Source: a virus. From it: a DNA stretch of 64,000 bases. The translations under genes and the position numbers were made by a program. This document shows positions 19,831-62,895 of the stretch, piece after piece; position 1 is the first letter of the stretch, and the number at the start of each line of letters is the position of its first letter. The DNA lies in the IMG/VR virus record IMGVR_UViG_3300020601_000005; one strand, given 5' to 3'. The notes beneath the pieces are model-generated. The model did no database searches, had not been told where the DNA came from, and saw only the letters and a program-made list of their open reading frames with translations.

Positions 19831-22524
19831 TTACCAAGCAGCTTTAGTAATATACTTACCAAACGACTTGTCTTGATTGCGCGTGGTCTTTGACATACCA
19901 ACATTCGTGCTACTATTATTGTTTTGTACATTAGTCGGAGCACTAACTACCACTGCTTGTTGCTGCTTTTTACCTGAAGCTTCAGCATTCTGAGCTGACG
20001 GGGTTGATATATCTGCACCAGGTACTGATGATCTAGACTTGAGTGCATTATCACGTGACCTATCTGCAATATCAGATTGCATTACTTTACTTGGTGGCTT
20101 GATTTCTCCACTTCCCACCTTATCACGATATAACATGTGCGCACGGCTTCTAGCTGCACGTTTGCTAGCTAGTGTAGCACCCTTCTTCTGTTCTTTATAA
20201 AGCTTCTGCCATTCTGGAGTCTTTTCTGCTTCACTTGCGATATACCCAGACATACCAAATGTTTTCGGCCTATTCAGGGTAGAAGTACTTTTTGAAGCAT
20301 CACTTGGAGCCGGCTGGACCGCTTCTCGTGTTTCCATTGCGCTATCGGCCTTAGCTTCTTTTTGCATTGAAACTGACTCGTCGCTTTTCTCTTGAGAGCT
20401 TACTGCCTTTTCTGCAGCCTTCTTACCTTTGTACTTAGCCATTGCTTCAGCCCAAGCTTCAGCTTCAGCTTCTCGCGCAATATTCTTGCGTGCTATGGTA
20501 GACATTCTACCCTTATATTTCTTTGCCTTCTCGTTGATAAGCTCGTTTTTACGCTTCTGGAATTCTTCGTAAGCTTTAGGATCATTTTTACGCATGTCAA
20601 TCGACATTTCAGCGTCACTCATTTCTCCAGATGCGTTAGGCTTCCAGCCAACAGTCTTAGTTCTGCCAGATCCGCCAGACTTACTAACAGCACCACCGCT
20701 AGCATCAGTTCTAGCAGAGCCAATGGCTTTGCCTAATGCAACGATCTTTTCATTTGGTAATTTGCTGATTGCCTTTAATTGATCTTCGTCAATATCTTTA
20801 AACTGACGCAATCCTTCTGCAAGAACTGTAATACCTTCACCAGCAGCCTGAACACCTGGACCAACTCTACCGATCTCGATCAGCTGTTCTACTGGTGATT
20901 TCTGACCACCGATTGCAGACAACAATCCGGATACTAAGTTAGTGACGCCTCCCACAGCATTTGCTGCACCAAATGCAACCATTGCAGCTGATAGTGCAGT
21001 CAATCCACCTGCCACGCTAAATAGATTAGATCCATCTACATCATTTAATTTTAGTATATTAGTTGCGAACGTTTCAAAAGCGTCGGCCGCTAGGTTTGCT
21101 GCGTATCCAAATGGTACTAGCGCAACACCTAATGCTCCAATAGCAAGAGCACCGGTAAACATTAATGGAGCTAGTGATCCCATGATAGCTCCTGCGGCAC
21201 CTAATGCAGTAATAGATATTGCCGCCTTGCCAAGATCTTCCCATGATAAATCACTGAATGTCTTAAGTGCGGCACCAACTCCATACAAAGCTAAAGCCAT
21301 TGCACCAAGTCCTAATGCACCTTTCAGCATCGTACCAATATTTCTACCCATCAGCTCGCCGACAGCAACTAATCCTGCTAATGCAATAGTCGCTTTTCCA
21401 ATCGATCCCCAATCGACTTCGTTAAATCCCTTAAGAGCTTTTGATAATACCCATAAAGCACCGGCAAATGCAGCGATACCTGCTGCCGCCTTTAGCATAT
21501 TTTTAAAACCACCTTTATCAAAGAAATTATTGAAGCTAGATCCAAAGCCGCCGCCAGATCCACCAGCTCCACCACCCGCTGTGCCCTTTCCACCAGAACC
21601 TCCGCCTTTGGAAATTTCTTCTCCATTAGCAGTCGCGCGAGTATTCTCTTCGATCTTTCCTAACAATGTAATTTGTTCATTGCGCCAGTCAGCATGTTCT
21701 CTTTCGGCTTCTGCTGCAGACGTCCCCTTTGGACGATCTGTGCCGGGTCCTTTCCAACCTGGTTCAAGACCTCCAGTTTTATTTTCAGTTCCTGTTTTGT
21801 CGCCACGATCAATAAGATCCTTCATTCTAGGATCTGCATTGCTCATCGTATTTGCCAACTCCTGGCGTATTGCTAGGAGTCCAGTCTTACCAATATCTTC
21901 GTCATTATATCCACGATCCTTTAGCGCTTTAATCTTCTTTTCATTGGCACGCATCTTGCGCGATGTTGCCTGTTGTATTCTAAATTCGCTAGCCGCTTCA
22001 GCTTCTGATTTTGAAGGATCGATCATTTTCTGATCTTTGATGTAATCCAATTTAGACTGTCTACGGTTAAGGGCCGTAGAAATAATACCACCTGAATCTC
22101 CCTTTACCATGCCGGTTTTATTTGCAAAACCTTTTAGCGTGAAAAAGTCTTTTACATTATCTTTAATTCCGCCAATACGTTCACCAATGGTTTTATATTG
22201 ATCACGACCAAGTGCCGTGCTAGTAATGTTGGCGGCACTACCACTAGTAAGAGCTTTGCCTAAAAACCCAGACTGCTTCTGTGTTTCATTAAGAAGCTTT
22301 CCCATGTTGGTATTGACTTTGTCGAATAAGCCAACTAGTTTTTCCATCTTCGAATTCATGGATATGCTAACCGCAACACCCGCCTGAGTGCTAAGAAGGC
22401 TTTCCCGCTGTTTATTCTCCTGAGCAGAGGTTAGAATGGAATTAGTTTTTGCGGCACGTTGGATGCCGGCAGATCTATCCACAGCAGACAAGCTTGTTCT
22501 TTGCTTTTCTAATAAGGCTTTCAT
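19831..22524 (-). CDS. Tape-measure/baseplate hub protein (gp29-like)
   Basis: 897 aa, Ala/Gly-rich helical repeats, C-terminal VVVSAPTNVQNNNS motif; downstream of gp26/gp51. Confidence 0.75.
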   Translation of the reverse strand: MKALLEKQRTSLSAVDRSAGIQRAAKTNSILTSAQENKQRESLLSTQAGVAVSISMNSKMEKLVGLFDKVNTNMGKLLNETQKQSGFLGKALTSGSAANITSTALGRDQYKTIGERIGGIKDNVKDFFTLKGFANKTGMVKGDSGGIISTALNRRQSKLDYIKDQKMIDPSKSEAEAASEFRIQQATSRKMRANEKKIKALKDRGYNDEDIGKTGLLAIRQELANTMSNADPRMKDLIDRGDKTGTENKTGGLEPGWKGPGTDRPKGTSAAEAEREHADWRNEQITLLGKIEENTRATANGEEISKGGGSGGKGTAGGGAGGSGGGFGSSFNNFFDKGGFKNMLKAAAGIAAFAGALWVLSKALKGFNEVDWGSIGKATIALAGLVAVGELMGRNIGTMLKGALGLGAMALALYGVGAALKTFSDLSWEDLGKAAISITALGAAGAIMGSLAPLMFTGALAIGALGVALVPFGYAANLAADAFETFATNILKLNDVDGSNLFSVAGGLTALSAAMVAFGAANAVGGVTNLVSGLLSAIGGQKSPVEQLIEIGRVGPGVQAAGEGITVLAEGLRQFKDIDEDQLKAISKLPNEKIVALGKAIGSARTDASGGAVSKSGGSGRTKTVGWKPNASGEMSDAEMSIDMRKNDPKAYEEFQKRKNELINEKAKKYKGRMSTIARKNIAREAEAEAWAEAMAKYKGKKAAEKAVSSQEKSDESVSMQKEAKADSAMETREAVQPAPSDASKSTSTLNRPKTFGMSGYIASEAEKTPEWQKLYKEQKKGATLASKRAARSRAHMLYRDKVGSGEIKPPSKVMQSDIADRSRDNALKSRSSVPGADISTPSAQNAEASGKKQQQAVVVSAPTNVQNNNSSTNVGMSKTTRNQDKSFGKYITKAAW

Positions 22525-22652
22525 TGATTTTGTCTTTCTAGTCGTAGTCGTTCTTCCTCCAGATACTGTAATAATAAGCTTACGTAAATCTCACGTTCAA
22601 AGGGTATCATAGATTCTAATTCTTCCAAACTATATTTATGATACTGCATCAT
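22521..22652 (-). CDS. gp51: Baseplate hub assembly catalyst gp51 (not in ORF track; frame open to 22706)
   Basis: MMQYHKYSLEELESMIPFEREIYVSLLLQYLEEE; ATGA-coupled to the tape-measure gene. Confidence 0.85.
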   Translation of the reverse strand: MMQYHKYSLEELESMIPFEREIYVSLLLQYLEEERLRLERQNQ

Positions 22653-22702
22653 GGCAAACGTACTTTTATAATAGCTTGCCAGCGTTTCATGATAAAGGTT
22701 TA

Positions 22703-23416
22703 TTAAAAAAAACTGTCGAGCCCTTTTATTACTAGTTCATGGTGGTGATTACATACTGGGCAATCAAATTTGATGTCTTGCTCCAGTTTAGGCATGGTTT
22801 CAAAGAAACTTTGAATTTTTGCAAACTGATCTTGTGTTAAATTCTCAATGAACTGAACTAGATCCTCTTTTGATTGTTCTTTAGATGCATACACTGTATC
22901 TGAATCATAAATGTATTCGATAGAATCTACGATAATGTCAAAAATTAATTCAACATTTCCTGCATTAAAGTCTTCTGTCTTCTTTAGCATCGCTAAACCT
23001 GGATAGTTCATCTTAACGCCAACACTATCAGATAGCTTAATTAAGCTGACGTGATCGGGATCAAACTTCACGTTTAACTTGGTTAAGTCAATTGGTATCT
23101 GAACCTTGGCTTTGTCATCGTTACATTCGGTGCATGAAAACACCGGTTCAACAACCTCACCAACAGATCTTGCACGTAGTTGGCAAAAGATATATTCAAT
23201 ATCAAATACTGCTAAAGTGTCTACATCGAGCTTTTCAAATGTACATGCCCTAATGACAGACTTAATAGTCTCGAGCATAGTACTTGCTTCTTCGCTCTCT
23301 TGAGCAATAAGCAAAGCTTTTTCTTCCTTCACAAGGAAAGGTCTGAATTTAATCTTTTCCTTTGTGGATGGTACAGTCAATTCGTACGTTGGGGTGTTTA
23401 TAATAGGTAAAGCCAC
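22703..23416 (-). CDS. gp26: Baseplate hub assembly chaperone gp26
   Basis: MALP...P.YEL..PST, FRPFLVKEEK.LL, LRARSVGE, two CxxC, FFETMPKL and GL.SFF motifs. Confidence 0.92.
   Translation of the reverse strand: MALPIINTPTYELTVPSTKEKIKFRPFLVKEEKALLIAQESEEASTMLETIKSVIRACTFEKLDVDTLAVFDIEYIFCQLRARSVGEVVEPVFSCTECNDDKAKVQIPIDLTKLNVKFDPDHVSLIKLSDSVGVKMNYPGLAMLKKTEDFNAGNVELIFDIIVDSIEYIYDSDTVYASKEQSKEDLVQFIENLTQDQFAKIQSFFETMPKLEQDIKFDCPVCNHHHELVIKGLDSFF
22705..22712 (-). other. Putative -1 programmed frameshift site (U8)
   Basis: AGT TTT TTT TAA at the end of gp26; the -1 frame continues into gp51. Confidence 0.7.
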
Positions 23417-23417
23417 A

Positions 23418-23858
23418 TCAATCTCCTCTTCTCATATTTTCGATCATTTTACTAAGTTCAGTTGTACTTCCAACAAATATAGCATTATTAGTTATATTTC
23501 CACCTGCTTGCGCTGTGGTTTGTTCTGTTTTCCCTCTAGATTCTAACTCCTGTCTCTTCGTATGAAGATCCACAAGTTGGTGATTAATATCGGATAGTTG
23601 TTTCATTAAACCTCCGACCACTTCGAACGCCCTAGGATGCTCAGAGCTCTGAGCAACTTCCAATGCATGTTCTAATGCAGTTTTTCCCTTGTTAAGAAGG
23701 GCATAAAGATTATTACGAGTATTCTCATAATCATCATCTATCTTGGTTTCTTTAACGACCTCTGGAGTCGTTTCAGTATAATCAACGATCTCCGTATTCT
23801 TACCTTGTATAGGTTCAACGTCAAAGACGCTACTCAAATTTTTATCAAGTTTACTCAT
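23418..23858 (-). CDS. gp16: Terminase small subunit gp16
   Basis: DYE.TR.NL, A.SSEHPRAFEV and NNAIFVGST.EL motifs. Confidence 0.88.
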   Translation of the reverse strand: MSKLDKNLSSVFDVEPIQGKNTEIVDYTETTPEVVKETKIDDDYENTRNNLYALLNKGKTALEHALEVAQSSEHPRAFEVVGGLMKQLSDINHQLVDLHTKRQELESRGKTEQTTAQAGGNITNNAIFVGSTTELSKMIENMRRGD

Positions 23859-23873
23859 ATTTAAAAACCATAG

Positions 23874-24608
23874 TTATGGGGCAATAGATAACGGATCAGT
23901 CCAAAGAGGTTCTAGTCTCTGTGGTGCGGTGTAGAATGAAGATACTATCTGTTCTGGTTTAGCACTAGTACTATATATTGTAGATTGATAATCCACGAAA
24001 TTGTTAACGAATGCGTCTTTGCCTAAAGCTGGTAGTGTATCAACAACAGTAGCATTTCCCACGGAAGTTGATGCACTATTGGCTGATTCAAACCATTCGT
24101 ATTGCATAGTAACACTTAACTTCATGATATCCCTGTTTGCATAGTCCAATTGAACTGCACCAATATTTTTTGGAAATGCATTAAACAATGTGGTAGTATA
24201 AACAGGAGCATTAGATGTGTCATACACATGGATAGACATCTGAGGACATATGTAATCAGATGGATAGTTAAAATCACGAGTAGTAATTGACTGTACAGAT
24301 TCAACCCATACGTCAAACATTCTCTTGATTAACAAATCTTTATCCATATAAAATGTCAATGTGACAGGTTCAAATATTCTCTCATAGGCAACTTCTCTGG
24401 TTTCTCCATATGAACGAACCGGGTTAGTTCCGAAAGATGTTCCTGGTAATTGCGCAGTATCACACATCAACCTAATCATTCGAAGATTTGATAGGAACGG
24501 TTCTTGCCTTGAATTTAGTGTTGGAGGAGCATTTAACTCGACCAAGAATCGATTCGATTTAGACAGACCGCTAGCGCGGATGTTGCTTTTAAATTCTTGT
24601 ATACTCAT
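23874..24608 (-). CDS. Tail tube initiator gp54-like (gp19 fold)
   Basis: NRF.V, C..AQLPG, LTFY.D, F..W, FPK and L.VT..Y motifs. Confidence 0.75.
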   Translation of the reverse strand: MSIQEFKSNIRASGLSKSNRFLVELNAPPTLNSRQEPFLSNLRMIRLMCDTAQLPGTSFGTNPVRSYGETREVAYERIFEPVTLTFYMDKDLLIKRMFDVWVESVQSITTRDFNYPSDYICPQMSIHVYDTSNAPVYTTTLFNAFPKNIGAVQLDYANRDIMKLSVTMQYEWFESANSASTSVGNATVVDTLPALGKDAFVNNFVDYQSTIYSTSAKPEQIVSSFYTAPQRLEPLWTDPLSIAP

Positions 24609-25186
24609 CTCTTAATAGACTCCGTCCAAATTTTGTTTTTATTATTTCCCACAAATCTTTCAACTGGCAGCATCATTGCTGTATGCCAATCTGATGGTGC
24701 AACTTCAATAAATTGCGATTCTACGTGACCCATCAAATAGTGTTTAACACATGGAGCAGCAAACTTAAACTTAGAGGCTCCTGATATTAAGTTCCACGAG
24801 TATTTAATCTTGGTGGTCTCATCAAAATTTTTATTATTGGCAAACTGCATCAATCTAGTCATTAGTTGAACTCTATGCCAATGCGGCAAATAGTGCATAT
24901 TCAATCCCATGAAACCATCCTTTGATTTCTGGTATGGAAATACTAATGGGAAAGTGTCGTAATGCGCTAGAGTGTCCTTTGTTTTAGGATCATAATAAAA
25001 CATATACAACTTACCAGGCATAACTCTAGAAGTCAATCTTTGCTCTGAGAAAAGCTTTCTCTCTTGTAATCGTTTAACACCCAATACTCTGGCCTGTTGC
25101 TGAAACCAAGTCTTGGAATTGTCAGCGATACTCCTATCGTATTGGTACTTTACGAAATAAGAATTTAAATCTTGTGGATTCTTCAT
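24605..25186 (-). CDS. gp2: DNA end protector gp2
   Basis: YMFYYDPKTK, YD.FPL, GLNMHYLP, CVKHYL and LP.E.F motifs. Confidence 0.9.
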   Translation of the reverse strand: MKNPQDLNSYFVKYQYDRSIADNSKTWFQQQARVLGVKRLQERKLFSEQRLTSRVMPGKLYMFYYDPKTKDTLAHYDTFPLVFPYQKSKDGFMGLNMHYLPHWHRVQLMTRLMQFANNKNFDETTKIKYSWNLISGASKFKFAAPCVKHYLMGHVESQFIEVAPSDWHTAMMLPVERFVGNNKNKIWTESIKR

Positions 25187-25605
25187 TTAATACCTAGTTC
25201 TCTTTCGGTTATAATAATAAATTCCCAGCCCCTACGCTCTGCGTAATCTCTTGCATATTGCCATTTGGCTTGGTTTACCAAATACGTTTGAGCTTCGGCC
25301 AGAAACCTTTTTGTACGTTTAGTACTTTCCGGCTTCCGGGTCTGGGCTTCAGGTTTAATCTCAACAAGGAACGTTTTACCTCCCTTGGTCTGTATTCTAA
25401 AGTCAACAAAATAACGATGTGGTTTGTTATCTATTGGAGAGATATACGGAACAATAGTTTCTTCTGATGACCATTTAACTATATCTGGATTCTTGTCACA
25501 CCAAAGCGCAAAGCGCGTTTCCCAACTAGATCGCATAACGATGTTGGTATAATCCCCTGCGTATTTCTCGGGGTATAATGGTTTGTATATCCGCTTGTGG
25601 TACAT
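25183..25605 (-). CDS. gp4: Head completion nuclease gp4
   Basis: RSSWE, WSSEE, HRYFVDF, VEIKP, NQAKW and TE.EL motifs; ATG at 25605. Confidence 0.92.
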   Translation of the reverse strand: MYHKRIYKPLYPEKYAGDYTNIVMRSSWETRFALWCDKNPDIVKWSSEETIVPYISPIDNKPHRYFVDFRIQTKGGKTFLVEIKPEAQTRKPESTKRTKRFLAEAQTYLVNQAKWQYARDYAERRGWEFIIITERELGIK

Positions 25606-25612
25606 ATAAATA
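25605..25612 (+). promoter_or_regulatory. T4-type late promoter for the gp48 operon
   Basis: TATAAATA. Confidence 0.8.
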
Positions 25613-25631
25613 GATATAGTCTTACTACTCT

Positions 25632-25639
25632 TATTTATA
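25632..25639 (-). promoter_or_regulatory. T4-type late promoter for the gp4 operon
   Basis: TATTTATA on + strand (TATAAATA on -). Confidence 0.8.
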
Positions 25640-25646
25640 TACTCCA

Positions 25647-26816
25647 ATGGCATACACTTTCGACCCCTACAACGCAGAAGGATTGGGACTAACCATGGGA
25701 AGTGGTTACGGAATGACTTCAGCCGTACCATCTTTCACATATAAAGCCACGACTTTTAGCCCCGAATATTCAGTTCAGGGTTTAACCTATCCGGAAGACT
25801 TGGATTCAAGTAAATATGGTGGGAATAAAGTTGTGTTTTATATTAATGTCTCCGTAGATTCCAAAGTCCTGCGTAACGATGCTGGCGCTCTTGCTACAGT
25901 TGAGAATGTCCAACGCGATATGCGTGGAACATTAATTGGAGAAAAAATCGGATCAAATACCGCTAGTACGGTTGCCACGGCTGTGGGCGGTGGCGTTGCA
26001 GTTGGTGCTGCAGGTAGTGCAATCGGAAGTGCGGTTGGATTAGGAAGTGGTGTTGGAATAGCTGGAGGACTTGCAACTGGAGCTACGGCAGGTTATTTAG
26101 CAGCCACCACCAATAATCAAGAAATTACTGCAGCTGAAGCTAAAGCTCCTACATTTGCACGACCACAAAAAAGATTAAAGGCTGCGGTCGCTCTATATGT
26201 TCCTAATAACTTACAAATCAGATATTCGGTTGGTTGGGGCGAAGAGGACATGATGGGATTAAGTGCTATCGGTAAACTTGGCGAAGAAGCATTTAGGGCT
26301 CAGGAACCAGGTAATCGTTCTGGAATTGGTGCAGCTACTGGAATTGCTGGTGAAGTACTGGCAAACTTGGGTATTAGTAAATCACCAATGGGGAATCAAT
26401 ATGCAACTGCTGCTGGTATTGCGGCGAACCCAAAGAAAGAACAATCATTTAAGAACGTCGATTTTAGAACGTTCACCATGGATTATAGCTTTGCTCCTAG
26501 GAATTCTGCAGAGGCATCTAACGTCATGAATATTATTCAGGCATTTAAATACCATATGCACCCGGAATTTAAATCTGAAGATAAGTTCTTATACATATAT
26601 CCATCAGAATTCGATGTGGTTTATTACAAAAACAATACAGAGAACTTAAAGATCCATCGTCATCCTTCTTGTGTATTGACCGAGATGAATGTCAATTATG
26701 CACCAAACGGAGTTTTCACAACATTTTCTGATGGTATGCCAACTAATATTAATGTTCAGTTAACATTTAGAGAGTTGCAGACCCTAACCAAAGAAACTAT
26801 CGAGAAGTATACCTAA
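25647..26816 (+). CDS. gp48: Baseplate tail-tube cap gp48
   Basis: L.YP.D, LY.P, NP..E..F, R.F, PRN..E, FK..MHP, YPSEF and L.F.EL motifs; divergent from gp4. Confidence 0.85.
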   Translation: MAYTFDPYNAEGLGLTMGSGYGMTSAVPSFTYKATTFSPEYSVQGLTYPEDLDSSKYGGNKVVFYINVSVDSKVLRNDAGALATVENVQRDMRGTLIGEKIGSNTASTVATAVGGGVAVGAAGSAIGSAVGLGSGVGIAGGLATGATAGYLAATTNNQEITAAEAKAPTFARPQKRLKAAVALYVPNNLQIRYSVGWGEEDMMGLSAIGKLGEEAFRAQEPGNRSGIGAATGIAGEVLANLGISKSPMGNQYATAAGIAANPKKEQSFKNVDFRTFTMDYSFAPRNSAEASNVMNIIQAFKYHMHPEFKSEDKFLYIYPSEFDVVYYKNNTENLKIHRHPSCVLTEMNVNYAPNGVFTTFSDGMPTNINVQLTFRELQTLTKETIEKYT

Positions 26817-40565: not shown

Positions 40566-43500
40566 ATGGCAATCGACTTCAACACTGAACCGTTTTTTGA
40601 TGATTATAACGAAGACAAGAAATTCTATAGAATTCTGTTTAGACCAGGTACTGCTGTACAGGCTCGTGAATTAACTCAGTTGCAGACTATTCTCCAAGAG
40701 CAAATTAAGCGCCATGGAGATCATATCTTTAAAGAAGGTTCGATGATCATTCCTGGTCAGGTTGCCTATGATTTAGATGTTAGCTATGTTAAGTTGAAAG
40801 ATGACCCTACGGTTGACTTTGCTGCTACGTTTGCCGCAATGAAAGACCAGATCATTCAGGATAGTAATGGTACATTAGCCAAGGTCATCGACTATACTCT
40901 GTCCGAAGCAAACTCAGAAGGCACGATTGAACCTAATACATTGTTTGTTAAGTTCGTTGCTTCAGGTTCAGATGAACTAGGCAATCCACTATCTGAATTC
41001 TCTCCTAATGAACAATTAACTTTGATTGATGGTTCAACTCCGTATAATATCTTTGTAGATGATCCGGATGAAATCCAGGCGGCCATTGTTGGAAAAGCAG
41101 GTATCGCTTCTGTTCAGCGTGGTGTATATTACATTCGTGGTCACTTTGTATTAGTTCCTGAACAGTCAATCATATTAGACAAATACAGTAATACTCCAAG
41201 CTATCGCATTGGTCTTCAGCTAGTTGAAGAAGTTATTTACCCAGAATCAGATGAATCATTATTGGATAATGCTTTAGGCTCTCCTAACTATTCTGCGCCA
41301 GGTGCCGCTCGATACTTTATCGACTTACAATTGACAAAATTGTCATTGACCACTACCGCGGATACTGATTTCATCGATCTATTGAGATTGTCAAATGGCC
41401 GTGTTATTTTCAAGGTAGAAAGAACCGAATACGCAGAAATTGAAAAGACACTAGCTCGTAGAACGTTTGACGAGTCTGGCGATTATACATTATCTCCATT
41501 CCCAATTAAACCACGTGACTACCGCAGTAACGATCGTGGTGGATGGTCTGCCGCAGAAAAATATATTTTTGGCGACATGATTAGTATCATCACGAATGGT
41601 ATTAACCTAAATTACTTCATGTGTACAGATGATGGCACATCAGATGCTGCCACTGAGCCTACATGGAGCACGACTGCAGCATCCATTAGCGACGGTACCA
41701 CGACATGGGAGTATATGCCTTACCCAATCTTTAATGATGGCGTATATAAATTCGAGTCTGGTCAATACGACTTCACATTGGATGACCACAATCGTCTAGC
41801 GGCTATGGTTGCATACGCAATTGAGCCAAGTAAAGCCTATGTTAAAGGTTACGAGATTAGCAAGATTACAACTGAATATGTACCGGCGTTTAAGTCACGA
41901 TACATTCCAGCAGGAAGTAATAACTTATGTGATTACTTTGGCGTTGAACACGGCTCATTAGTTGAAATTGATCAATCAGTCTCTGCCGAAAAGACCGCAA
42001 CATTGGACCTATCTATGGGTTCATATGTTATTGCTGAAAATCTTTTATTTGCACCAGATCTATCCACCTTTGAGAAAGTTACATTGCGCAATGTTGCACT
42101 TTCTAGTGGTACAATTGGTAGCACTAGCTCTGTCATCGGTACGGCTCGTGTCCGCGGTCTAGAGTTACATGATAAAGGCGCAACTGTTGCTGAAGACCAA
42201 TACAAAGTATTCTTGTTTGACATCCAAATGAATGGATTAAACACATTTGATCAGGTTGCTGCCATCTATGATAGCTCTACTAAATTCAAGTGTGACATGG
42301 TTGCCGGAGTTGATAACTTTACGGTGCTAAATGATCCAAATAATTTCTCTTTGATTCACCAATTACCTGATTATGCAATCAAAGAAGTTATTGAAGCTAA
42401 TTACGACGTTGTTTACCCATTAACAATTACTGGTACAGAACAAATCGTCAGTCCTCCAGCAGGATTCTCTTTTGACTCAGTGAGTGGCATTGGTAACTAT
42501 GTACTTATCATGAAGTCAGGCGGTTCAGAAAACGGTTCTTACATTGAATATAATACTTCTGGCCAACCGCAAATTGCTATTAATGGTTCAGGACAATTGG
42601 AAGTTACCGCTCTAGAATCAAGCGTGGTTTACACTCTATTTGCAACGCTTATTTCTAATGGAAATAGTGGATTTAGCACTGCATTATCTATCCCTGAGGA
42701 TAGGGTAGATTATTTCATGACTGAAGAATTGGCTGCTCCAGTTTCTAGGGTTCTAACTTTACAGAAATCGTATGTTGCCCGATTGATTTCTGTTATGCAA
42801 GATACAGGCGACTTTGATAATCCAACCGGAACTTACGGAGTAGACATCACTAACCGCTACACGCTAGATAGCGGCCAACGTGATACACATATTTCCGTTG
42901 GTAAACTATCATTGGCACCAAATGCTCCAGCCCCGACTGCACCGCTTAAGGTAACATATGAATATATTATGCCATCTGGTGATTCAGGCGGCAAGCTATT
43001 CACTGTTGATTCATATATAGCAGAAAATTCTAATATCTCATATGCCAGCATTCCTAGCTTTAGCTTAAATCAATTAAGAGACTGCTTAGACTTTAGACCA
43101 TATGCATTAGATTCTGCTAATACATTCTATACACGTTTCATGCCTAAATTTGGCAGAAATGCAGTATTCAAGTATCATGCATACTTAGCTCGTGTCGACT
43201 GTTTGTCTTTGAACACGAAGGGTCAATATGTAGTTTCATACGGCATTCCTGATGATATTAATCCTCAAGAGCCAACAATTCCAACCGAAGCAATGAAGCT
43301 AGCGGTAGTGAACGTTGAACCATACACATTCTCTAGCGACGGCCTAGAAGTAAGTCGTGTTGAAAACAAACGTTACACCATGCGCGATATCGGTAAGCTA
43401 GAGCGTCGAATTAAAGATCTAGAATATTACACATCGTTGTCTATGCTAGAAGCTGATACCAGCAACATGCGTATTGTCGATTCAAATGGACTTGATAGAT

Positions 43501-46500
43501 TCCAGAACGGTTTCTTGGTAGATACATTTGATGGACAAGGTATTGGTAACACTGCTTCTAATGAATGGAATGCATCAATCGATTCTAAGAAGAAAGAATT
43601 GCGCCCATTCTTTGCTCAAAGACAAGTTGATTTGTTAGAAAACGTAGATAAAGCAACACGTGATTACTCCATCTTAGGTGACATCATCACGATGCCAATT
43701 TCTTCTGAAATTGACATGATTAGTCAATTACGTGCAAGTAAAGACATCTCAGTTAACCCATATGATTTGTTTACCTTTAAAGGTATCATGTACTTGAACC
43801 CATGGTCAGACACATGGTTCTCTACAGATCGTCGTCCAGATATTATTATCAACGACGATGGTCAATATAACGCGTTGGTTGCTAAAGCTGAATCCGATGG
43901 AGTATTGGGTAGTGTTTGGAATGCATGGCAACTAGTATCTCAGGGCGAACCAGTTACAATTGGCAGTAAACTAGATGTTATTTCTAGCAATGCTCAAAGT
44001 AATAGATTTGCAAAAATTGATACTGATTTGATTAACTCCGGTGGTAGTGGCGTTGGTAATGGTCCATATTGGAGATCACGTGCGTCATTTACATCTGAAG
44101 AATTAGGTGCGATTGGATTAAATCCAGCTCAAGCAGGAAATTGGGGATACTTAAGATCATCAACTGCTTCTTCAGTTGCAGGTTCACGCGTGTTGACAAT
44201 TGAAACTGATGCAGTGGAAACAATCAGCTCACGTTCAGGTAAGAGAACATTTATTGAGGATAAGATCGACTCAAGAGTTGTTGATGACAAGGTTGTGGAA
44301 ACACGCGTTGTTCCATATATCCGTCCAAGAGCGGTTCTATTTACCGCTAGCGGCTTGAAGCCATCCACAGAAGTTAATGGTTTCTTTGATGGTATTAAAG
44401 TTGATCAGTATATTACACGTGCACAAACTATTCGTGTTCAGTTAATCACTGGTTACGGAAGCACATTCGATACTGCAAGAAACTGTGGTTCAGACGTTTC
44501 TAAAATAGAACGTTTGATCGAACAACCAGCCTATGGTCAAGGCACAATTAATGTTGTTAATAACTCAACCGCTGTTGTTGGTTATACTACAGGATTTTTG
44601 AGTGAATTCATCGCGACAGACTTTATCATCATCGATGGTACTGAATATCGTATTGCTGAAGTTACCGATAATACAAACTTAGTATTGGAAACTCCGTATA
44701 CTGGACAAACTGCAGACGAGATTGCATATAAACGTCGAATTCCAGGCGTTGCAAACTCTGAAGTTGAAGTTGCGTTTAACCACGGCGAAGTCATTCGCGA
44801 TAGTGTAACTGGTGCAACAGCCATCGTCGTTGGACAAGAAGCGCATAAGATCAATGCAACAACTACACATTATTACCTACATATTTTAAACATTAAAAAG
44901 GGAAATAGCAGTAGCGCCTTTAGTACAGCATCAGCTGCATTCTTAGAAGGACAGTATACAAATACTGATGGCAACGGTGGAAGAAAGCCACGTGTTAAGT
45001 ATGTTAATACACCGAGCGCAGAAAATCCAGCTAGAAAAATTAAAACTTCATTGACAGGTCAGTTGCATGGTATCTTTAGAATTCCAAATAACCCTAAAGA
45101 TCGTTTTAGAACTGGCGTGCGTGAGTTAGTATTCACCGATTCTGGAAATCCTAAAGAAAGCGGAAATACTAGCACTACCGCAGTATACGAAGCAAACGGC
45201 GTGGTTACAGTTAAACAGCGTACCGTGATTTCTACTAGAACTGGTTCACTGAAGGTTGAAGACTTAGATCCAGAAAGCAATGCAATCATCACAACAACTG
45301 ATAGATTAACGCGTGACACCGGATGGTTTGACCCATTGGCTCAGACATTTATGGTTCAAGAAGAAGGAGGAGCGTTTATCTCCTCAGTCGATTTGTTCTT
45401 CTCTGCCGTTGATACTAACATTCCAGTTCGTATCGAGATTCGTGAAGTTGTTAACGGTTATCCAGGTCAGATTGTTTTACCATTCTCTAGAGTGTTTAAG
45501 AAACCTGCTGATGTGTATACATCCGCAACTGGTACAGTGGCAACAACGTTCAGATTTGAATCACCGGTGTACGTGCAAGAAGGTACTGAATATGCTTTGG
45601 TTGTCTTGTCAGACTCTGCTGCATTCCGTGTGCACATTGCAGAAACTGGTGCAGAAGATTACAACGGCAATAAGATTTCGTCTCAGCCATATAATGGCGT
45701 TTTCTTCAAATCACAGAATGCTTCCACTTGGACCGCATCTCAGATGGAAGATTTGAAATTTGTGATGAAAAAATCACAGTTTACTTCAGGAACATACGAA
45801 GTTGAATTGGTTCCGCCTAAGACAAACTTGAGAAACTTGGATTACCATCCATTTGCGTTTGTACAGGGTTCTAAGAAAGTTCGCGTTGCCCATAGAAACC
45901 ATGGTTTTGTAGTTGGAGAAACTGTCGAGATCTCAACTCGCCAGACTATCACTGATATTAATGGTTTCTTAGCTGCTGATATATTCAAGACCCATACAAT
46001 CATTTCCGCAGAAGAAGATTCATATGTGATTGAATTGACATCTTCTGCAACTGCTGCTGATGCAACTGGTCGCGAAGGTGGAGCATACATATACGCAACA
46101 GAGAATTATGAATTCTCTACGGCAATGTTGAATGCGGCAGTTACAGCAGTTTCAGGTACATCAATTAGTTATGTTCTTAAAACTGTAGATCATGCCGGTC
46201 AGTCTTACTTCAATACATTAGTTAATGGAGAAAACACTAGCTTTAATACACCACGTGTATTAACACACTCTCTAGAAAATACTACTGATGTTGTTGTAAC
46301 TGCAAAACTAAGTAGCACAAATCCTAACGTATCTCCAGTCTTAGACGTAGGTAGAATTGCGCTAACGATGGTTAATAACAAGGTTGATAGTCCGCGTGCA
46401 TTGACAGTAAATGATCCAGATTTGGACGAGTACATCTTGGCCAATACTACCACGATCAATGATACTACTGCGCCAATGAGTTTGACTGGTACTAATACGA

Positions 46501-47114
46501 TCACTATTGCTGCTTCGGAAACAGAATTGTTTAACACATTCAGTGAATTGCAAGTTGGCAATACAATTCGTTTTAGATACACCAATCTAGATAATTCCTT
46601 GGCAACTAAGATTGTATTCGTGGCTCAACACTTCGTTGATCCGGATGGCAATTTGGTTATTGAATTTGATACCGAAGACTTTACTGATCCAGGTTTAATG
46701 GAAACCCCATCTGGTAGAACTGTAGATATCCATTGGTTATCACATTACAATTCTGAAATTGGCGTCAATAACGGGTCAGTCACTTCTAAGTATGTTACCA
46801 AGAAAATTAACTTGGCACGTCCTTCAGAAATGTTGAGAATTATGATGGCAGCATCTATTCCTAATGATGCAGACATCGAAATTTACTACAAAACCGGTCA
46901 ATCGATCGATAGCGATTTTATTGCATCTAGATATTACCGTGCGGCTCCAACTAGTGGATATGTTAAGTCAGATTCACAGTGGACAGACCTATCATTTGAT
47001 GTTGAAAACCTAGAACCATTCACCAGCTTGATTGTTAAGATAGTGATGCGCTCGAGTAATATTGCCAAGGTTCCACGCATTAAAGACTTTAGGACAATAG
47101 CATGCGCAGCGTAA
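40566..47114 (+). CDS. Very large virion structural protein (VrlC/DUF4815-like)
   Basis: PFFDDY, ILFRPG.AVQARELTQLQ, LARRTFDESG, YTMRDIG.LE.RI, DPLAQTF, FKSQNASTW and FR.IA motifs. Confidence 0.88.
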   Translation: MAIDFNTEPFFDDYNEDKKFYRILFRPGTAVQARELTQLQTILQEQIKRHGDHIFKEGSMIIPGQVAYDLDVSYVKLKDDPTVDFAATFAAMKDQIIQDSNGTLAKVIDYTLSEANSEGTIEPNTLFVKFVASGSDELGNPLSEFSPNEQLTLIDGSTPYNIFVDDPDEIQAAIVGKAGIASVQRGVYYIRGHFVLVPEQSIILDKYSNTPSYRIGLQLVEEVIYPESDESLLDNALGSPNYSAPGAARYFIDLQLTKLSLTTTADTDFIDLLRLSNGRVIFKVERTEYAEIEKTLARRTFDESGDYTLSPFPIKPRDYRSNDRGGWSAAEKYIFGDMISIITNGINLNYFMCTDDGTSDAATEPTWSTTAASISDGTTTWEYMPYPIFNDGVYKFESGQYDFTLDDHNRLAAMVAYAIEPSKAYVKGYEISKITTEYVPAFKSRYIPAGSNNLCDYFGVEHGSLVEIDQSVSAEKTATLDLSMGSYVIAENLLFAPDLSTFEKVTLRNVALSSGTIGSTSSVIGTARVRGLELHDKGATVAEDQYKVFLFDIQMNGLNTFDQVAAIYDSSTKFKCDMVAGVDNFTVLNDPNNFSLIHQLPDYAIKEVIEANYDVVYPLTITGTEQIVSPPAGFSFDSVSGIGNYVLIMKSGGSENGSYIEYNTSGQPQIAINGSGQLEVTALESSVVYTLFATLISNGNSGFSTALSIPEDRVDYFMTEELAAPVSRVLTLQKSYVARLISVMQDTGDFDNPTGTYGVDITNRYTLDSGQRDTHISVGKLSLAPNAPAPTAPLKVTYEYIMPSGDSGGKLFTVDSYIAENSNISYASIPSFSLNQLRDCLDFRPYALDSANTFYTRFMPKFGRNAVFKYHAYLARVDCLSLNTKGQYVVSYGIPDDINPQEPTIPTEAMKLAVVNVEPYTFSSDGLEVSRVENKRYTMRDIGKLERRIKDLEYYTSLSMLEADTSNMRIVDSNGLDRFQNGFLVDTFDGQGIGNTASNEWNASIDSKKKELRPFFAQRQVDLLENVDKATRDYSILGDIITMPISSEIDMISQLRASKDISVNPYDLFTFKGIMYLNPWSDTWFSTDRRPDIIINDDGQYNALVAKAESDGVLGSVWNAWQLVSQGEPVTIGSKLDVISSNAQSNRFAKIDTDLINSGGSGVGNGPYWRSRASFTSEELGAIGLNPAQAGNWGYLRSSTASSVAGSRVLTIETDAVETISSRSGKRTFIEDKIDSRVVDDKVVETRVVPYIRPRAVLFTASGLKPSTEVNGFFDGIKVDQYITRAQTIRVQLITGYGSTFDTARNCGSDVSKIERLIEQPAYGQGTINVVNNSTAVVGYTTGFLSEFIATDFIIIDGTEYRIAEVTDNTNLVLETPYTGQTADEIAYKRRIPGVANSEVEVAFNHGEVIRDSVTGATAIVVGQEAHKINATTTHYYLHILNIKKGNSSSAFSTASAAFLEGQYTNTDGNGGRKPRVKYVNTPSAENPARKIKTSLTGQLHGIFRIPNNPKDRFRTGVRELVFTDSGNPKESGNTSTTAVYEANGVVTVKQRTVISTRTGSLKVEDLDPESNAIITTTDRLTRDTGWFDPLAQTFMVQEEGGAFISSVDLFFSAVDTNIPVRIEIREVVNGYPGQIVLPFSRVFKKPADVYTSATGTVATTFRFESPVYVQEGTEYALVVLSDSAAFRVHIAETGAEDYNGNKISSQPYNGVFFKSQNASTWTASQMEDLKFVMKKSQFTSGTYEVELVPPKTNLRNLDYHPFAFVQGSKKVRVAHRNHGFVVGETVEISTRQTITDINGFLAADIFKTHTIISAEEDSYVIELTSSATAADATGREGGAYIYATENYEFSTAMLNAAVTAVSGTSISYVLKTVDHAGQSYFNTLVNGENTSFNTPRVLTHSLENTTDVVVTAKLSSTNPNVSPVLDVGRIALTMVNNKVDSPRALTVNDPDLDEYILANTTTINDTTAPMSLTGTNTITIAASETELFNTFSELQVGNTIRFRYTNLDNSLATKIVFVAQHFVDPDGNLVIEFDTEDFTDPGLMETPSGRTVDIHWLSHYNSEIGVNNGSVTSKYVTKKINLARPSEMLRIMMAASIPNDADIEIYYKTGQSIDSDFIASRYYRAAPTSGYVKSDSQWTDLSFDVENLEPFTSLIVKIVMRSSNIAKVPRIKDFRTIACAA

Positions 47115-57504: not shown

Positions 57505-60500
57505 ATGGCACAATATATCGGTAATTCACCAGCAAATATTCTCTTACAAACTAAGAGACAGACATTTACTTACATTGCTACTGCTGGTCAAACAATTTTT
57601 TCCGGAACTGATGCGTTCTCTCAGTCCTTCGTAGCTCCATCATTAGCGCAAATATTGGTTTACGTTAATGGATCATTGATTGAACCGCATGAATATTCTA
57701 ATACAACATCCACTCTAACACTAAACGCTGGTGTTAGTGCCGGTGATACTGTAGTTGTTTTCACTGAAATAGAAGCTGCTTTAGTATCGTCGTATACTCG
57801 CGAAGAGACGTTAGATTTAATCAACTTGACTCTTTCTAGTGGATTTGATACATTATTTTCAGCAAAAGATACCGATGATCTCGCAGAAGGCACTAACCTA
57901 TACTATACCGACGCTAGAGCGCAAGGTGCTATCTCAACAGATGCAACACTATCATATTCAGATGGTGTAGTTTCTATGCCTCTATCTGGCGTTACTGCCG
58001 GGGAATATGGTTCTGCAAGTACAGTTCCTGTTATTACAGTTGATGCTCAGGGTCGCATTACATCCGCATCTACGACCAATGTTGCTGGAGTTAGCGGGTT
58101 CTCATATGTACCTTCAACTAACACATATACTATCACAACTTCAGCCGGAACTAGTTTCGATGCTACTGGTGATTTAACTTCATTCGATACTGGTGATCTT
58201 GCAGAAGGCACTAACTTATATTATACTGATGCGCGTATTAACGATTTCCTTGCCACCAATGGATACGATTCTGCCATTGCTGCCAAAATTAACTCAGCTG
58301 ATTTTACTTCAACAGCAGATACTTGGATTAATACTAAAAATTCTGACGTCCTCGATGAAGGCGTTACTAATTTATACTATACGGATACACGAGTTGGTGA
58401 TTACCTTGACAACAATGGATATGATACTGCGGCAAATATTGTAGCGTCAATCGTAGACACTGCTCCTACTACACTAGATACTCTAAACGAACTTGCGGCA
58501 GCTTTGGGCGATGACCCTAACTTTGCAACTAGTATCAGTGATGCTATCGGATTGAAGGCTAACACTGCTGATTTAGGAACTGCCGCAGCACAAAATGTTG
58601 AATACTTTGCAACTGCTGCTCAAGGTACTCTTGCTGATAGTGCATTGCAATCAGTTGCATTTACTGATCTTACAACAACTCCAACGACAATCTCTGGATA
58701 CGGTATTACTGATGCGTTCGATGGTGCTTATGCAAGTTTAACTGGCGTTCCTACTTTAGGAACAGCTTCTGCTGAAAATGTAGAATACTTTGCCAGCGCA
58801 GCGCAAGGTGCATTGGCGGATAGCGCATTGCAATCAGTTGCATTTGCAGATCTTACTTCAACCCCAACGACACTTGCAGGATATGGTATCACTGATGCAT
58901 TTGATGGTGCATATTCAAGTCTAACAGGTACTCCGACGACACTTGCAGGATATGGTATTACTGATGCTCCAGCATCATTGACTGATCTTGGAATCACAGA
59001 TGGTACTATTGGTCAGATCCTCACCACTGACGGAGCTGGTGGATTTACATTCGAAGATGCTGCAGAACCTTTAGTAGTTTCAGGTACTGCACCAGCATCA
59101 CCAGAAGAAGGTGCATTGTGGTTTGATAATGTCACTACTGGTCAACTCTACGCATATGTAGGTACTTCATGGTTGTCAACAGCTGGATTGACAACGTTAA
59201 GCTTCTCAAGTGTTGGTGATCTATCTGATGTAGATATTACGACATCTACTCCAACTGCAGGACAAGCGTTAGTTTGGGATGCAGTAAATTCTAAGTTTAT
59301 TCCAGGAGAGTCTTTCAGTCAATCTGATTTTAATACCGCATTTGCAGCTAATAGCACAGATGATTTGGATGAAGGTACGACTAACCTATACTATACGGAT
59401 ACTCGTGCAGACGCTAGAATTACTCTTGCATCTAGTAATTATGCCACCGCTGCGCAGGGTGTATTAGCAGATACTGCTTTACAGACAGTCGCATTTGCGG
59501 ATCTCACGACAACTCCAACCACGATCGCTGGTTATGGTATCACTGATGCCTTTGATGGTGCGTACTCAAGTCTGACTGGCACTCCAACCACGATCGCTGG
59601 TTATGGTATCACTGATGCCTTTGATGGTGCGTATTCAAGTTTAACTGGCACTCCAACTTTAGGAACAGCTTCTGCTGAAAATGTCGAATACTTTGCTACA
59701 GCTGCTCAAGGCGCTTTGGCAGATACTGCTTTACAGACAGCTGATTTAACTGGTTATGCCACTGAAACATTCGTGAATAACGCAGTAGCTGCAAAAGATA
59801 ATACAGACGAGATTACAGAAGGCACGACTAACCTATACTATACAGATGCACGCGTCGAGACAAAGATTGATGCATATGTAACTGGTGGAACTGGTGTTAC
59901 AGTTACATCTGGCGAAATCGCAATTGGTCAAGACGTTGCAACTACTGCTGACGTTATCTTCAACGACATTTCTGCCAACGGAAACGTTGTTATTGACGGC
60001 AACTTAACTGTTTCTGGCACAACTGTTACTATCAATGCTACCGACCTTGCCGTTGAAGATAACATGATATATCTCAACTCAGGTAGTGCCGTTGCCAATC
60101 CTGATCTTGGTATTGCTGGTAACTATAATGATGGTACATACGCACATGCAGGCGTCTTCCGCGATGCTACTGATGGAGTATGGAAGTTCTATGATGGATA
60201 CACACTAGAACCAGATGCATCTGTTTTCATTGACACATCACATGCCTCATTCAATTTAGCATCAGTTCAGGCAAGTTCTTTTATTGGCGATGTTACTGGC
60301 ACAGTTTCATCTTTATCTAATCATACCACTACAGATCTAACCGAAGGAACTAATCTTTATTATACTGATACAAGAGTTGGTACATATCTAACAACAAACT
60401 CGTACGCGACAGAAACGTTTGTTGGTTCTGCGATCACAACTGCATCTAGTAACTACGCTACAGCTGCACAAGGTGCATTAGCAGATAGTGCACTCCAAAC

Positions 60501-62895
60501 AGTTGCTTTCGGCGACCTCACATCGACCCCAACAACATTGGCTGGATATGGTATCACGGATGCGTTTGACGGTACTTATGCAAGTTTAACTGGAGCTCCA
60601 ACTGTTCCATCTGCATTGACGGATCTTGGAATTACTGACGGTACTATCGGACAGATTCTTACTACAGACGGTGCCGGTGGATTTACATTCGAAGATTCTA
60701 CTGGCGGTGTTGTCGTATCAGCAACAGCCCCTACATCACCGGCAGAAGGTGCACTATGGTTTGATAATGTTACAACCGGCCAACTATATGCGTATGTTGG
60801 AACTTCCTGGCTATCAACTGCCGGTCTAACGACGTTAAGTTTCTCAAGTGTTGGCGATTTATCTGATGTAGATATTACTTCAGCCGCTCCTACTGATGGT
60901 CAAGCATTGGTTTGGGATAATGCCAATTCTAAGTTTATTCCTGGCGATGTTTCTGTAGACTTTACTGGTTATGCAACAGAAACATACGTTGGTACAGCAA
61001 TATCTACAGCATCTAGCAATTACGCTACAGCTGCACAAGGAACTCTTGCTGATAGTGCATTGCAAGCAGCCGATTTGACTGGATATGCTACAGAAACTTA
61101 TGTCGGTACAGCAATATCTACAGCATCTAGTAATTATGCGACTGCGGCTCAAGGTACACTTGCCGATAGCGCATTACAGGCTGCCGACCTAACTGGTTAT
61201 GCCACGGAAACATATGTTGGTACGCAGATTGCTAACTTGGTTGACACTGCGCCATCAACATTAGATACATTGAATGAGCTTGCTGCAGCATTGGGAGACG
61301 ATCCTAACTTTGCTACAACAATTACAACTTCATTGGGAGAAAAAGTAGATCTTACTGGAACTACTACTGCTGTTATTCCATTCTATTATGCAGATCAGAC
61401 ATCATTCCCAAGTGCAGCAACATATCATGGCGCCATAGCACACAGTCATGCAGATGGTGCAATGTATTTTGCGCACATGGGAACGTGGGTTGAACTTGCA
61501 AATTCAACTGATTTAGTTTCTGATGTTAGCGGATTATCCGATGTCGATCTAACAACCACACCTATCGCAGACGGAAATACTTTGGTGTGGAATGCTTCTT
61601 CTGGAACATTTATTCCAGGAGATCATGCAATCTCGGCAGTAGGTTACTCCAACGATTACGATGATCTAGATAACAAACCAACTCTATCAACAGTAGCAGG
61701 AACTGGTGACTATAATGATCTGATCAATACACCTACTGTTCCAGCTTCTATCGATGACTTGACTGATGTAGATACTTCTACATCGGCTCCTTTAGATGGT
61801 CAGTCTTTGGTTTGGAGTTCGACAACTTCTAAGTGGAGACCAGTTACCGTATCCGGTGGCACTGGTGGTGGTTCTAGTTTAGTTCCTACTCAAGACACGG
61901 CACCTGTAGGTCCTGCTGATGGTCAGTTATGGTATGACACAGACTCTGGAACATTGTTTGTATATTACGACGATGGTTCTACTGCACAATGGGTCCAGGT
62001 CGCAAACCCATCTTCTGGTGGTACTGTTTCAATTTATCTCAATGATCTACATAACGTAGACACAGAAACCAATCCTGCTGCTGATGGACAGGCATTGATT
62101 TGGGATGCTGCTAATTCCATGTGGATTCCTGGAGACTCATTCAGTGAGACTGATTTTAATACTGCATTCGGTATCAAGAGTATCGGTGGATTGGGTGATG
62201 TCGATTTAGCGACGACTCCTCCTGCAGATGGTGACACACTAGTTTGGGATGGTATCAACTCTAAGTTCGTTCCAGGAGCCGGTGGTGGCGGTGGTGGTGG
62301 TGCATCTATCACCACATCAGAGACTGCTCCTACAGAACCAGTAGAAGGTGACATGTGGTTCAACTCTGCGACATTCGCATTGTTCTTATATTATAACGAC
62401 GGTGATTCTACTCAATGGGTTCAGATCAACGATGCTGGTGGTGCTGCTGGAAATGGTCTAGTTCAGATCTCTTCCACTCCTCCTGCAAATCCTTCATCTG
62501 GTGATTTGTGGTACGACGATGCATCTACTGGAACTTTGTTGATATACAACGGCGAAGTATGGGTATCTACCGCAGATGGTGGCGGTGCTGGTAATCAATC
62601 AGGTTACTGGAGTGAAATTAATACCACTACTTTCGATGCGATCAGTGGATCTAAGTTGTTTGTGGATAGTTCTACTAATCCAGTTCAAGTTAATCTTCCT
62701 GCTAATCCTTCTATGGGTGAAGAAGTTTATATCGTTGATGCGACGGGAACTGCTGAAACAAATGCAATCACGGTGTCAAGAAACGGAAGTAAGATTCTAG
62801 GTCTTGACGAAGACTTGATCATGGATGTTAACAATGCAGCTGTTCTACTTGCATACTATAACACAACTCGTGGTTGGATCGTGTTAAGCAAATAA
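57505..62895 (+). CDS. Giant mosaic repeat fibre/virion protein
   Basis: YIGN.P and ATAGQT.F start; repeats L.EG.TNLYYTD.R, YATAAQG.LAD.ALQ, PTT.AGYGITDA, LDTLNELAAALGDD, L.DVD and G.LW.D. Confidence 0.88.
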   Translation: MAQYIGNSPANILLQTKRQTFTYIATAGQTIFSGTDAFSQSFVAPSLAQILVYVNGSLIEPHEYSNTTSTLTLNAGVSAGDTVVVFTEIEAALVSSYTREETLDLINLTLSSGFDTLFSAKDTDDLAEGTNLYYTDARAQGAISTDATLSYSDGVVSMPLSGVTAGEYGSASTVPVITVDAQGRITSASTTNVAGVSGFSYVPSTNTYTITTSAGTSFDATGDLTSFDTGDLAEGTNLYYTDARINDFLATNGYDSAIAAKINSADFTSTADTWINTKNSDVLDEGVTNLYYTDTRVGDYLDNNGYDTAANIVASIVDTAPTTLDTLNELAAALGDDPNFATSISDAIGLKANTADLGTAAAQNVEYFATAAQGTLADSALQSVAFTDLTTTPTTISGYGITDAFDGAYASLTGVPTLGTASAENVEYFASAAQGALADSALQSVAFADLTSTPTTLAGYGITDAFDGAYSSLTGTPTTLAGYGITDAPASLTDLGITDGTIGQILTTDGAGGFTFEDAAEPLVVSGTAPASPEEGALWFDNVTTGQLYAYVGTSWLSTAGLTTLSFSSVGDLSDVDITTSTPTAGQALVWDAVNSKFIPGESFSQSDFNTAFAANSTDDLDEGTTNLYYTDTRADARITLASSNYATAAQGVLADTALQTVAFADLTTTPTTIAGYGITDAFDGAYSSLTGTPTTIAGYGITDAFDGAYSSLTGTPTLGTASAENVEYFATAAQGALADTALQTADLTGYATETFVNNAVAAKDNTDEITEGTTNLYYTDARVETKIDAYVTGGTGVTVTSGEIAIGQDVATTADVIFNDISANGNVVIDGNLTVSGTTVTINATDLAVEDNMIYLNSGSAVANPDLGIAGNYNDGTYAHAGVFRDATDGVWKFYDGYTLEPDASVFIDTSHASFNLASVQASSFIGDVTGTVSSLSNHTTTDLTEGTNLYYTDTRVGTYLTTNSYATETFVGSAITTASSNYATAAQGALADSALQTVAFGDLTSTPTTLAGYGITDAFDGTYASLTGAPTVPSALTDLGITDGTIGQILTTDGAGGFTFEDSTGGVVVSATAPTSPAEGALWFDNVTTGQLYAYVGTSWLSTAGLTTLSFSSVGDLSDVDITSAAPTDGQALVWDNANSKFIPGDVSVDFTGYATETYVGTAISTASSNYATAAQGTLADSALQAADLTGYATETYVGTAISTASSNYATAAQGTLADSALQAADLTGYATETYVGTQIANLVDTAPSTLDTLNELAAALGDDPNFATTITTSLGEKVDLTGTTTAVIPFYYADQTSFPSAATYHGAIAHSHADGAMYFAHMGTWVELANSTDLVSDVSGLSDVDLTTTPIADGNTLVWNASSGTFIPGDHAISAVGYSNDYDDLDNKPTLSTVAGTGDYNDLINTPTVPASIDDLTDVDTSTSAPLDGQSLVWSSTTSKWRPVTVSGGTGGGSSLVPTQDTAPVGPADGQLWYDTDSGTLFVYYDDGSTAQWVQVANPSSGGTVSIYLNDLHNVDTETNPAADGQALIWDAANSMWIPGDSFSETDFNTAFGIKSIGGLGDVDLATTPPADGDTLVWDGINSKFVPGAGGGGGGGASITTSETAPTEPVEGDMWFNSATFALFLYYNDGDSTQWVQINDAGGAAGNGLVQISSTPPANPSSGDLWYDDASTGTLLIYNGEVWVSTADGGGAGNQSGYWSEINTTTFDAISGSKLFVDSSTNPVQVNLPANPSMGEEVYIVDATGTAETNAITVSRNGSKILGLDEDLIMDVNNAAVLLAYYNTTRGWIVLSK
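59512..59649 (+). repeat. Near-identical 69-nt tandem duplication
   Basis: Copies start at 59512 and 59581 and differ only near the 3' end. Confidence 0.9.

Follow-up and report, generated by a model that had tools for sequence, protein, structure and literature searches.

In a 64,000-nucleotide (nt) stretch of viral DNA (IMG/VR record IMGVR_UViG_3300020601_000005; hereafter the window, to which all positions refer), a gp26-like gene and a gp51-like reading frame next to the probable tape-measure gene are read here as a T4-like tail assembly chaperone pair expressed by programmed -1 ribosomal frameshifting, with a probability of about 0.8. The tape-measure gene is directly preceded by two overlapping open reading frames (ORFs); the second is offset by 764 nt (mod 3 = 2) and thus lies in the -1 frame, and we infer from the sequence that two proteins are produced from them.

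The gp26-like ORF ends GGG CTC GAC AGT TTT TTT TAA, with the eight-T run spanning 22712-22705 on the minus strand. The first-pass annotation of the window had described this run and the slippery heptamer before the stop, and both can be read from the sequence exactly there. Translation one base back from the T-run gives FFLINLYHETLASYYKSTFAMMQYHKY and continues to the extension stop. The -1 frame reads FFLINLYHETLASYYKSTFAMMQYHKYSLEE from the T-run and is open for 63 codons until the TGA at 22523-22521, which overlaps the tape-measure ATG (22524) as ATGA; the frame open to 22521 and the coupling of its stop to the tape-measure gene, both reported earlier, are seen in the sequence. The extension would contribute 61 residues to a predicted long form (TAC-NC) of 298 amino acids (aa), in agreement with the earlier estimate of roughly 298 aa. 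The predicted fusion junction is ...GLDSFF-LINLYHE..., with the junction peptide GLDSFFLINLYHETLASYYK. In the -1 frame, an ATG first occurs at 22652, which is extension residue 21; no GGAGG-like motif lies 5' of it, and the ORF that gene callers begin there omits the 18 conserved residues preceding it. The features of the locus are given in Table 1.

Table 1. Features of the gp26-like/gp51-like locus and the adjoining tape-measure gene (SD, Shine-Dalgarno)
Feature	Position	Strand	Remarks
gp26-like gene, predicted short chaperone form (TAC-N)	22703..23416	-	237 aa; GTG start at 23416, TAA stop at 22705-22703
Weak SD-like AAGGG	22721..22725	-	8 nt 5' of the heptamer; possible stimulator
Slippery heptamer U UUU UUU, X XXY YYZ phase	22706..22712	-	read directly
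0-frame TAA stop	22703..22705	-	immediately 3' of the heptamer; possible pause aiding the slip
-1 frame extension, gp51-like C-terminal module	22521..22712	-	63 codons including the re-read FF, plus TGA
43-aa ORF, the separate "gp51" of gene callers	22521..22652	-	read here as the tail end of the extension
Probable tape-measure protein, presumed client	19831..22524	-	897 aa; phrog_4372 tail length tape measure, E 3.4e-10

The 237-aa product is a gp26 homologue, matching PF12322 (T4_baseplate) at E 8.8e-64 with residues 9-237 on positions 2-218 of the 219-position profile, and phrog_150 at E 1e-69. The -1 product matches phrog_634 ("baseplate hub assembly catalyst", gp51) at E 1e-23 over residues 2-62, so that the residues before the ATG are included in the match to the gp51 family, and it also matches the C-terminal end of phrog_150. 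In the precomputed annotation of nine assemblies, the 43-aa ORF is called as a gene with a weak match to PF28602. This family is named "Gp51_C" there (loci L189-L197, gene 1381-1512), and its existence means that the gp51 C-terminal module is already a separate domain in Pfam. The called gp26 is probably 28 codons too short at its start, because homologues of 237 aa cover 100% of the GTG-started ORF. Gene callers begin it at an internal ATG, which gives 209 aa and leaves out 23333-23416 (-); the GTG lies one base after the stop of the upstream small-terminase gene.

In T4 itself, gp26 and gp51 are listed as hub assembly chaperones (Leiman et al. 2010, PMC3004832, Table 2). Both T4 gp26 (208 aa) and T4 gp51 match PF12322, and the two show weak mutual similarity. 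In T4 gp51 (249 aa), PF12322 covers residues 1-201 (E 3.9e-52), and the C-terminal stretch beyond them matches phrog_634. The conceptual fusion of the window aligns with T4 gp51 in a single BLASTP segment that runs across the junction (residues 74-281 versus 64-244, E 8e-6), and the end of T4 gp26, ...GLKEFFELL, shares a G-L-x-x-F-F motif with the short form of the window. The long form is thus colinear with T4 gp51, with PF12322 in both forms and phrog_634 (Gp51_C) as the C-terminal module, which implies that T4 makes as two genes what the window phage is predicted to make from one. The arrangements differ in that the T4 forms come from two diverged paralogous genes, 26 and 51, which are divergent neighbours on opposite strands, whereas the window phage has one gene and a predicted frameshift. 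Genes 27 and 28 intervene in T4, while the pair of the window directly adjoins the tape-measure gene. As cited in two later papers (PMC10885494, PMC12846349), Vladimirov, Gautam and Davidson (Virology 2022;566:9-15) identified gp26 and gp51 as the tail assembly chaperones of T4-like phages. Where it summarizes that work, the PRFect paper states that some T4-like phages have one short and one long fused gene and no frameshifting (PMC10885494), and the citing sentence of a 2025 paper on phage Adele speaks of "polyT-containing ... -1 frameshift signals" in the genes that encode the short form in T4-like phages (PMC12846349).

The slip site is conserved wherever the pair was found complete. A tblastn search of GenBank with the 63-aa -1 product matched 536 phage records, among them cyanophages, KVP40-like Vibrio phages, Sinorhizobium phage phiM9, Pelagibacter phage HTVC008M and Methylophilales, Pseudomonas and Paraglaciecola phages. 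Among the 60 rows listed, every match begins at residue 1, the Phe-Phe of the slip site; most of these matches straddle an annotated gp26/gp51 boundary, and for the remainder a single gene is annotated under the match. No joined gp26-gp51 coding sequence occurs among the 60 rows inspected and the 43-aa ORF of the window is called separately; the first-pass annotation had remarked that standard gene callers miss the fusion. Nine named phages inspected by hand all have a gp26 end of the form NNT TTT TTY/G that leads in the -1 frame into a gp51-like module (9/9). For wider comparison, 178 IMG/VR loci were collected with four gp26 queries in single-protein scans, and gp26 was placed in each locus by hidden Markov model; the comparative set consists of 186 complete related loci, representing 159 unique junctions.

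The heptamer T TTT TTN is in phase in 186/186 of these loci, a pattern that is for this reason far beyond chance. Its variants among the unique junctions are TTTTTTC (n = 109), TTTTTTT (n = 46) and TTTTTTG (n = 4). In 156/159 junctions the 0-frame stop follows 0-1 codons past the heptamer, and the -1 extension measures 58-70 aa across the relatives. On the 5' side of the slip site, the -1 frame closes early, its open stretch having a median length of only 8 codons. When junctions are aligned across T4-like phages, as the first-pass annotation had proposed, the heptamer, the -1 relation and the residues before the ATG are all conserved, in relatives down to approximately 25% identity.

Codon choice upstream of the heptamer points to a possible stimulatory element. 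In most members of the family, Glu-Gly stands five codons 5' of the first Phe; Glu is encoded there by GAG in 15/21 cases versus 24% elsewhere in these genes (P 7e-6), and GGG is enriched for Gly (P 1.5e-4). These codons together place GAGGG or GGAGGG 8-9 nt 5' of the heptamer; 17/35 cluster representatives have GGAG or GAGG. The dnaX stimulator has a similar spacing, which speaks for slippage on the ribosome.

The same codon bias bears on the strongest competing explanation, that of transcriptional slippage, in which RNA polymerase would add one U on the T-run and some mRNAs would carry the fusion as a single frame. The eight-T run of the window favors such slippage, and this length recurs in 35/159 junctions; across the relatives, the run varies from T6 to T8 and is only six T in 113/159. 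Six T is short for polymerase slippage, which is therefore a poor general explanation but may still apply to the eight-T run of the window, and the SD-like bias 8-9 nt upstream points instead to the ribosome. A paper that cites the 2022 work reads its "other mechanism", in the passage concerned, as two separate genes, as in T4 (PMC10885494). Overall, we regard polymerase slippage as unlikely.

A further alternative is that no recoding takes place: gp26 and a free 43-aa gp51 peptide (ATG 22652) would be translated separately, the U-run merely encoding a conserved Phe-Phe. Gene callers and GenBank records do annotate two genes, and many relatives have an ATG 4-6 codons past the gp26 stop. Against this stands codon usage at the slip site, which was assessed in 22 lineages sharing <50% gp26 identity. 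The first Phe codon is TTT in 22/22 lineages versus 67% for the other Phe codons of the same genes, and the wobble base of the preceding Ser, Asp or Asn codon is T in 22/22 versus a background of 70%. The joint probability of these fixed synonymous sites is ~6e-8, or 1e-12 with 35 lineages at 70% identity, while the last base of the heptamer varies freely among C, T and G, as expected for a Z position. The heptamer is conserved beyond what the amino acids require.

The stretch before the ATG also behaves as translated sequence. Forty-one unique junctions, the window included (17/35 clusters at 70% identity), lack any ATG, GTG or TTG ahead of extension residue 11, and residues H8, L11, Y14, Y15 and F19 are 80-90% conserved despite the missing early start codons. 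Extension position 6, a Met in relatives, is Leu in the window, S-CAM4 and HTVC008M (CTT, CTC and TTA, none a start codon). Nucleotide entropy follows a coding periodicity in the -1 frame, with values of 0.83, 0.67 and 1.25 at the first, second and third codon positions; a further set of values for the part before the ATG is 0.88, 0.60 and 1.29. The earlier impression that the 18 codons preceding the first ATG of the window look coding agrees with this third-position periodicity and with the conservation of these residues as protein. The lack of an SD for the first gp51 ATG was likewise confirmed, as nothing SD-like precedes 22652. Separate translation accounts neither for conserved codons without a start codon, here and in the 41 junctions, nor for the fixed synonymous positions, and T4 gp51 carries the same module fused to a gp26-like domain; we consider this alternative somewhat less probable still than polymerase slippage. 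Finally, a homopolymer error of sequencing or assembly in what is truly one continuous in-frame gp51-like ORF, raised in the first-pass annotation and conceivable in that long T-runs are error-prone on some platforms, is excluded for practical purposes by the identical eight-T junction in nine independent metagenome assemblies, and 186/186 relatives share the -1 offset and early 0-frame stop.

Frameshifting on the ribosome is accordingly the reading that we retain. Most ribosomes would translate the gp26-like gene to its TAA and release the 237-aa short form. A minority would slip back one base on U UUU UUU, with tRNA-Phe in the P and A sites or, alternatively, with tRNA-Phe in the P site and the stop codon in the A site, and would then read UUA and 60 further codons in the -1 frame to give the 298-aa long form, which would have the domain order of T4 gp51. 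By analogy with lambda G/GT, the common N-terminal chaperone domain may coat the tape-measure protein encoded directly downstream, and the extra C-terminal module may attach the complex to a hub or tube component and thereby let assembly begin. The occurrence of the slip, its frequency and the binding partners of each form are inferred in this scheme.

The fold predicted for the short form is compatible with a chaperone assignment. An AlphaFold2 model of the 237-aa form is confident, with a predicted local distance difference test score (pLDDT) of 86, and a Foldseek search of the PDB with this gp26 model gave no match at E <0.1. An exhaustive VIA-align search over 48,161 chains, in which the tool rates Z <8 as middling, returned as its three best matches 3fgx, an uncharacterised Bacillus protein (Z 7.9, root-mean-square deviation (rmsd) 3.9, 87 aligned residues), 2ob9, described as "bacteriophage HK97 tail assembly chaperone" (Z 6.7, rmsd 5.6, 84 aligned residues), and 3klu, YqbN of B. 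subtilis (Z 6.7, rmsd 4.8, 84 aligned residues). All three are small phage or prophage proteins and lie on model residues 1-95; the fourth match has Z 5.1. YqbN is presumably an XkdN-type prophage tail chaperone. The agreement of the top matches fits the assignment at modest scores. Across 28 homologues, the Cys pairs C95/C98 and C219/C222 never vary, a pattern suggestive of zinc binding by the chaperone. T4 gp26 retains one Cys of the first pair and a C-terminal CPxC, and T4 gp51 retains the first CPxC, with C-x-x-C replacing the second.

Several observations weigh against frameshifting of a chaperone gene. The structural Z-scores of 6.7-7.9 are in the middling range. An ATG lies 4-6 codons past the slip site in 114/159 relatives, and coupled re-initiation could therefore also yield a free small protein. 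The window itself has Lys-Gly (AAA GGG) at the stimulator position, and its SD-like match is weak (AAGGG only). No conserved downstream RNA structure was found by RNAalifold in 35 representatives (0 pairs), and the only hairpin of the window begins 24 nt 3' of the site and is not significant (z -1.5). The adjacent stop codon is plausible as the other pause signal. A candidate helix between the SD-like GGAGGG and a downstream CCUCU, which would enclose the slip site, was rejected, as 63.8% of cells were paired versus 60.9% in shuffles, no better than in slid controls.

The predicted arrangement resembles that of lambda gpG/gpGT, in which a -1 frameshift reportedly conserved among tail assembly chaperone genes operates (Levin et al. 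1993; Xu, Hendrix and Duda 2004, Mol Cell 16:11). Common to both are two (here predicted) products with the same N-terminus, an X XXY YYZ heptamer shortly before the short ORF ends and a position directly upstream of the tape-measure gene. In contrast, sequence similarity to the lambda proteins is not detectable, the gp26 domain of the window is larger (237 aa) and has two Cys pairs, the heptamer reads U UUU UUN, against G GGA AAG in lambda, and the window phage is contractile-tailed. The E. coli dnaX gene is likewise said to use a -1 frameshift with an upstream Shine-Dalgarno-like stimulator, to which the GAGGG of the T4-like family, 8-9 nt 5' of the heptamer and favored by synonymous codon choice, may correspond. 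Unlike dnaX, a conserved 3' stem-loop was not found in the T4-like family, the window has only AAGGG, and the shift site of the family uses tRNA-Phe instead of tRNA-Lys. The first-pass annotation had taken gp26 and the fusion to be the G/GT equivalents of this phage; conservation, the architecture of T4 gp51, gene position and the structural matches support that part of its proposal, and what does not hold is its novelty, since the idea, to judge from the papers that cite it, was published in 2022.

The window comes from an uncultured marine phage, and the genomic setting indicates a T4-like one, as T4-type neighbors include a gp32-like single-stranded DNA-binding protein, a small terminase, a tube-fold protein and homologues of gp2, gp4, gp48, gp5 and gp6. 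The closest DNA relatives of the window are marine cyanophages and single-cell marine viruses, and a tape measure is annotated at the same position in Pelagibacter phage HTVC008M. Upstream of gp26, a small-terminase-like gene (23418-23858, -; PF11053 E 1.4e-11, phrog_445 E 2.6e-38) sits within the tail-gene block, between gp26 and a gene for a tube-fold protein (23874-24608, -; PF23849/T4_gp19-like) that is probably of gp54 type. In CZ01, HTVC008M and phiM9, a tube-initiator-type gene adjoins gp26 directly or nearly so. The tube-fold protein gave 157 tblastn matches among 187 fetched loci (L011-L187), which indicates that the block of tube initiator, gp26, extension and tape measure is conserved.

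Elsewhere in the window, a gp4-like head-closure ORF (25183-25731, -) and a gp48-like tail-tube-cap ORF (25647-26816, +) are divergent and, as listed, overlap by 85 nt at their 5' ends. The profile match of the gp4-like ORF begins at residue 43, and its true start is therefore probably further downstream. A 697-aa ORF (305-2398, +) has no PHROG family, and the baseplate/fibre region contains two very large ORFs of 2182 aa (40566-47114, +) and 1796 aa (57505-62895, +).

The concept of gp26/gp51 as chaperones is already in print, and the window adds a further unannotated example. Because the idea dates from 2022, the present analysis serves to confirm it, to quantify the conservation and to correct annotation; it is not a discovery. 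More tentatively, the 2022 paper may have been sequence-only or may not have covered the marine (pelagiphage/cyanophage-like) branch. The locus would in that case, which we consider possible without favoring it, belong to a very large, almost universally mis-annotated predicted recoding event with a minimal signal (U6-8, an adjacent stop, an upstream SD-like element and no RNA structure), and the SD-like codon bias would be a new observation on stimulation.

The predicted frameshift would explain the short gene 51 stub in hundreds of T4-like phage genomes, and it offers a rule for annotation, by which the stub is attached to gp26 through a -1 shift at T TTT TTN. The contractile-tailed T4 group would then share the short-form/long-form chaperone logic with lambda, P2 and Mu.

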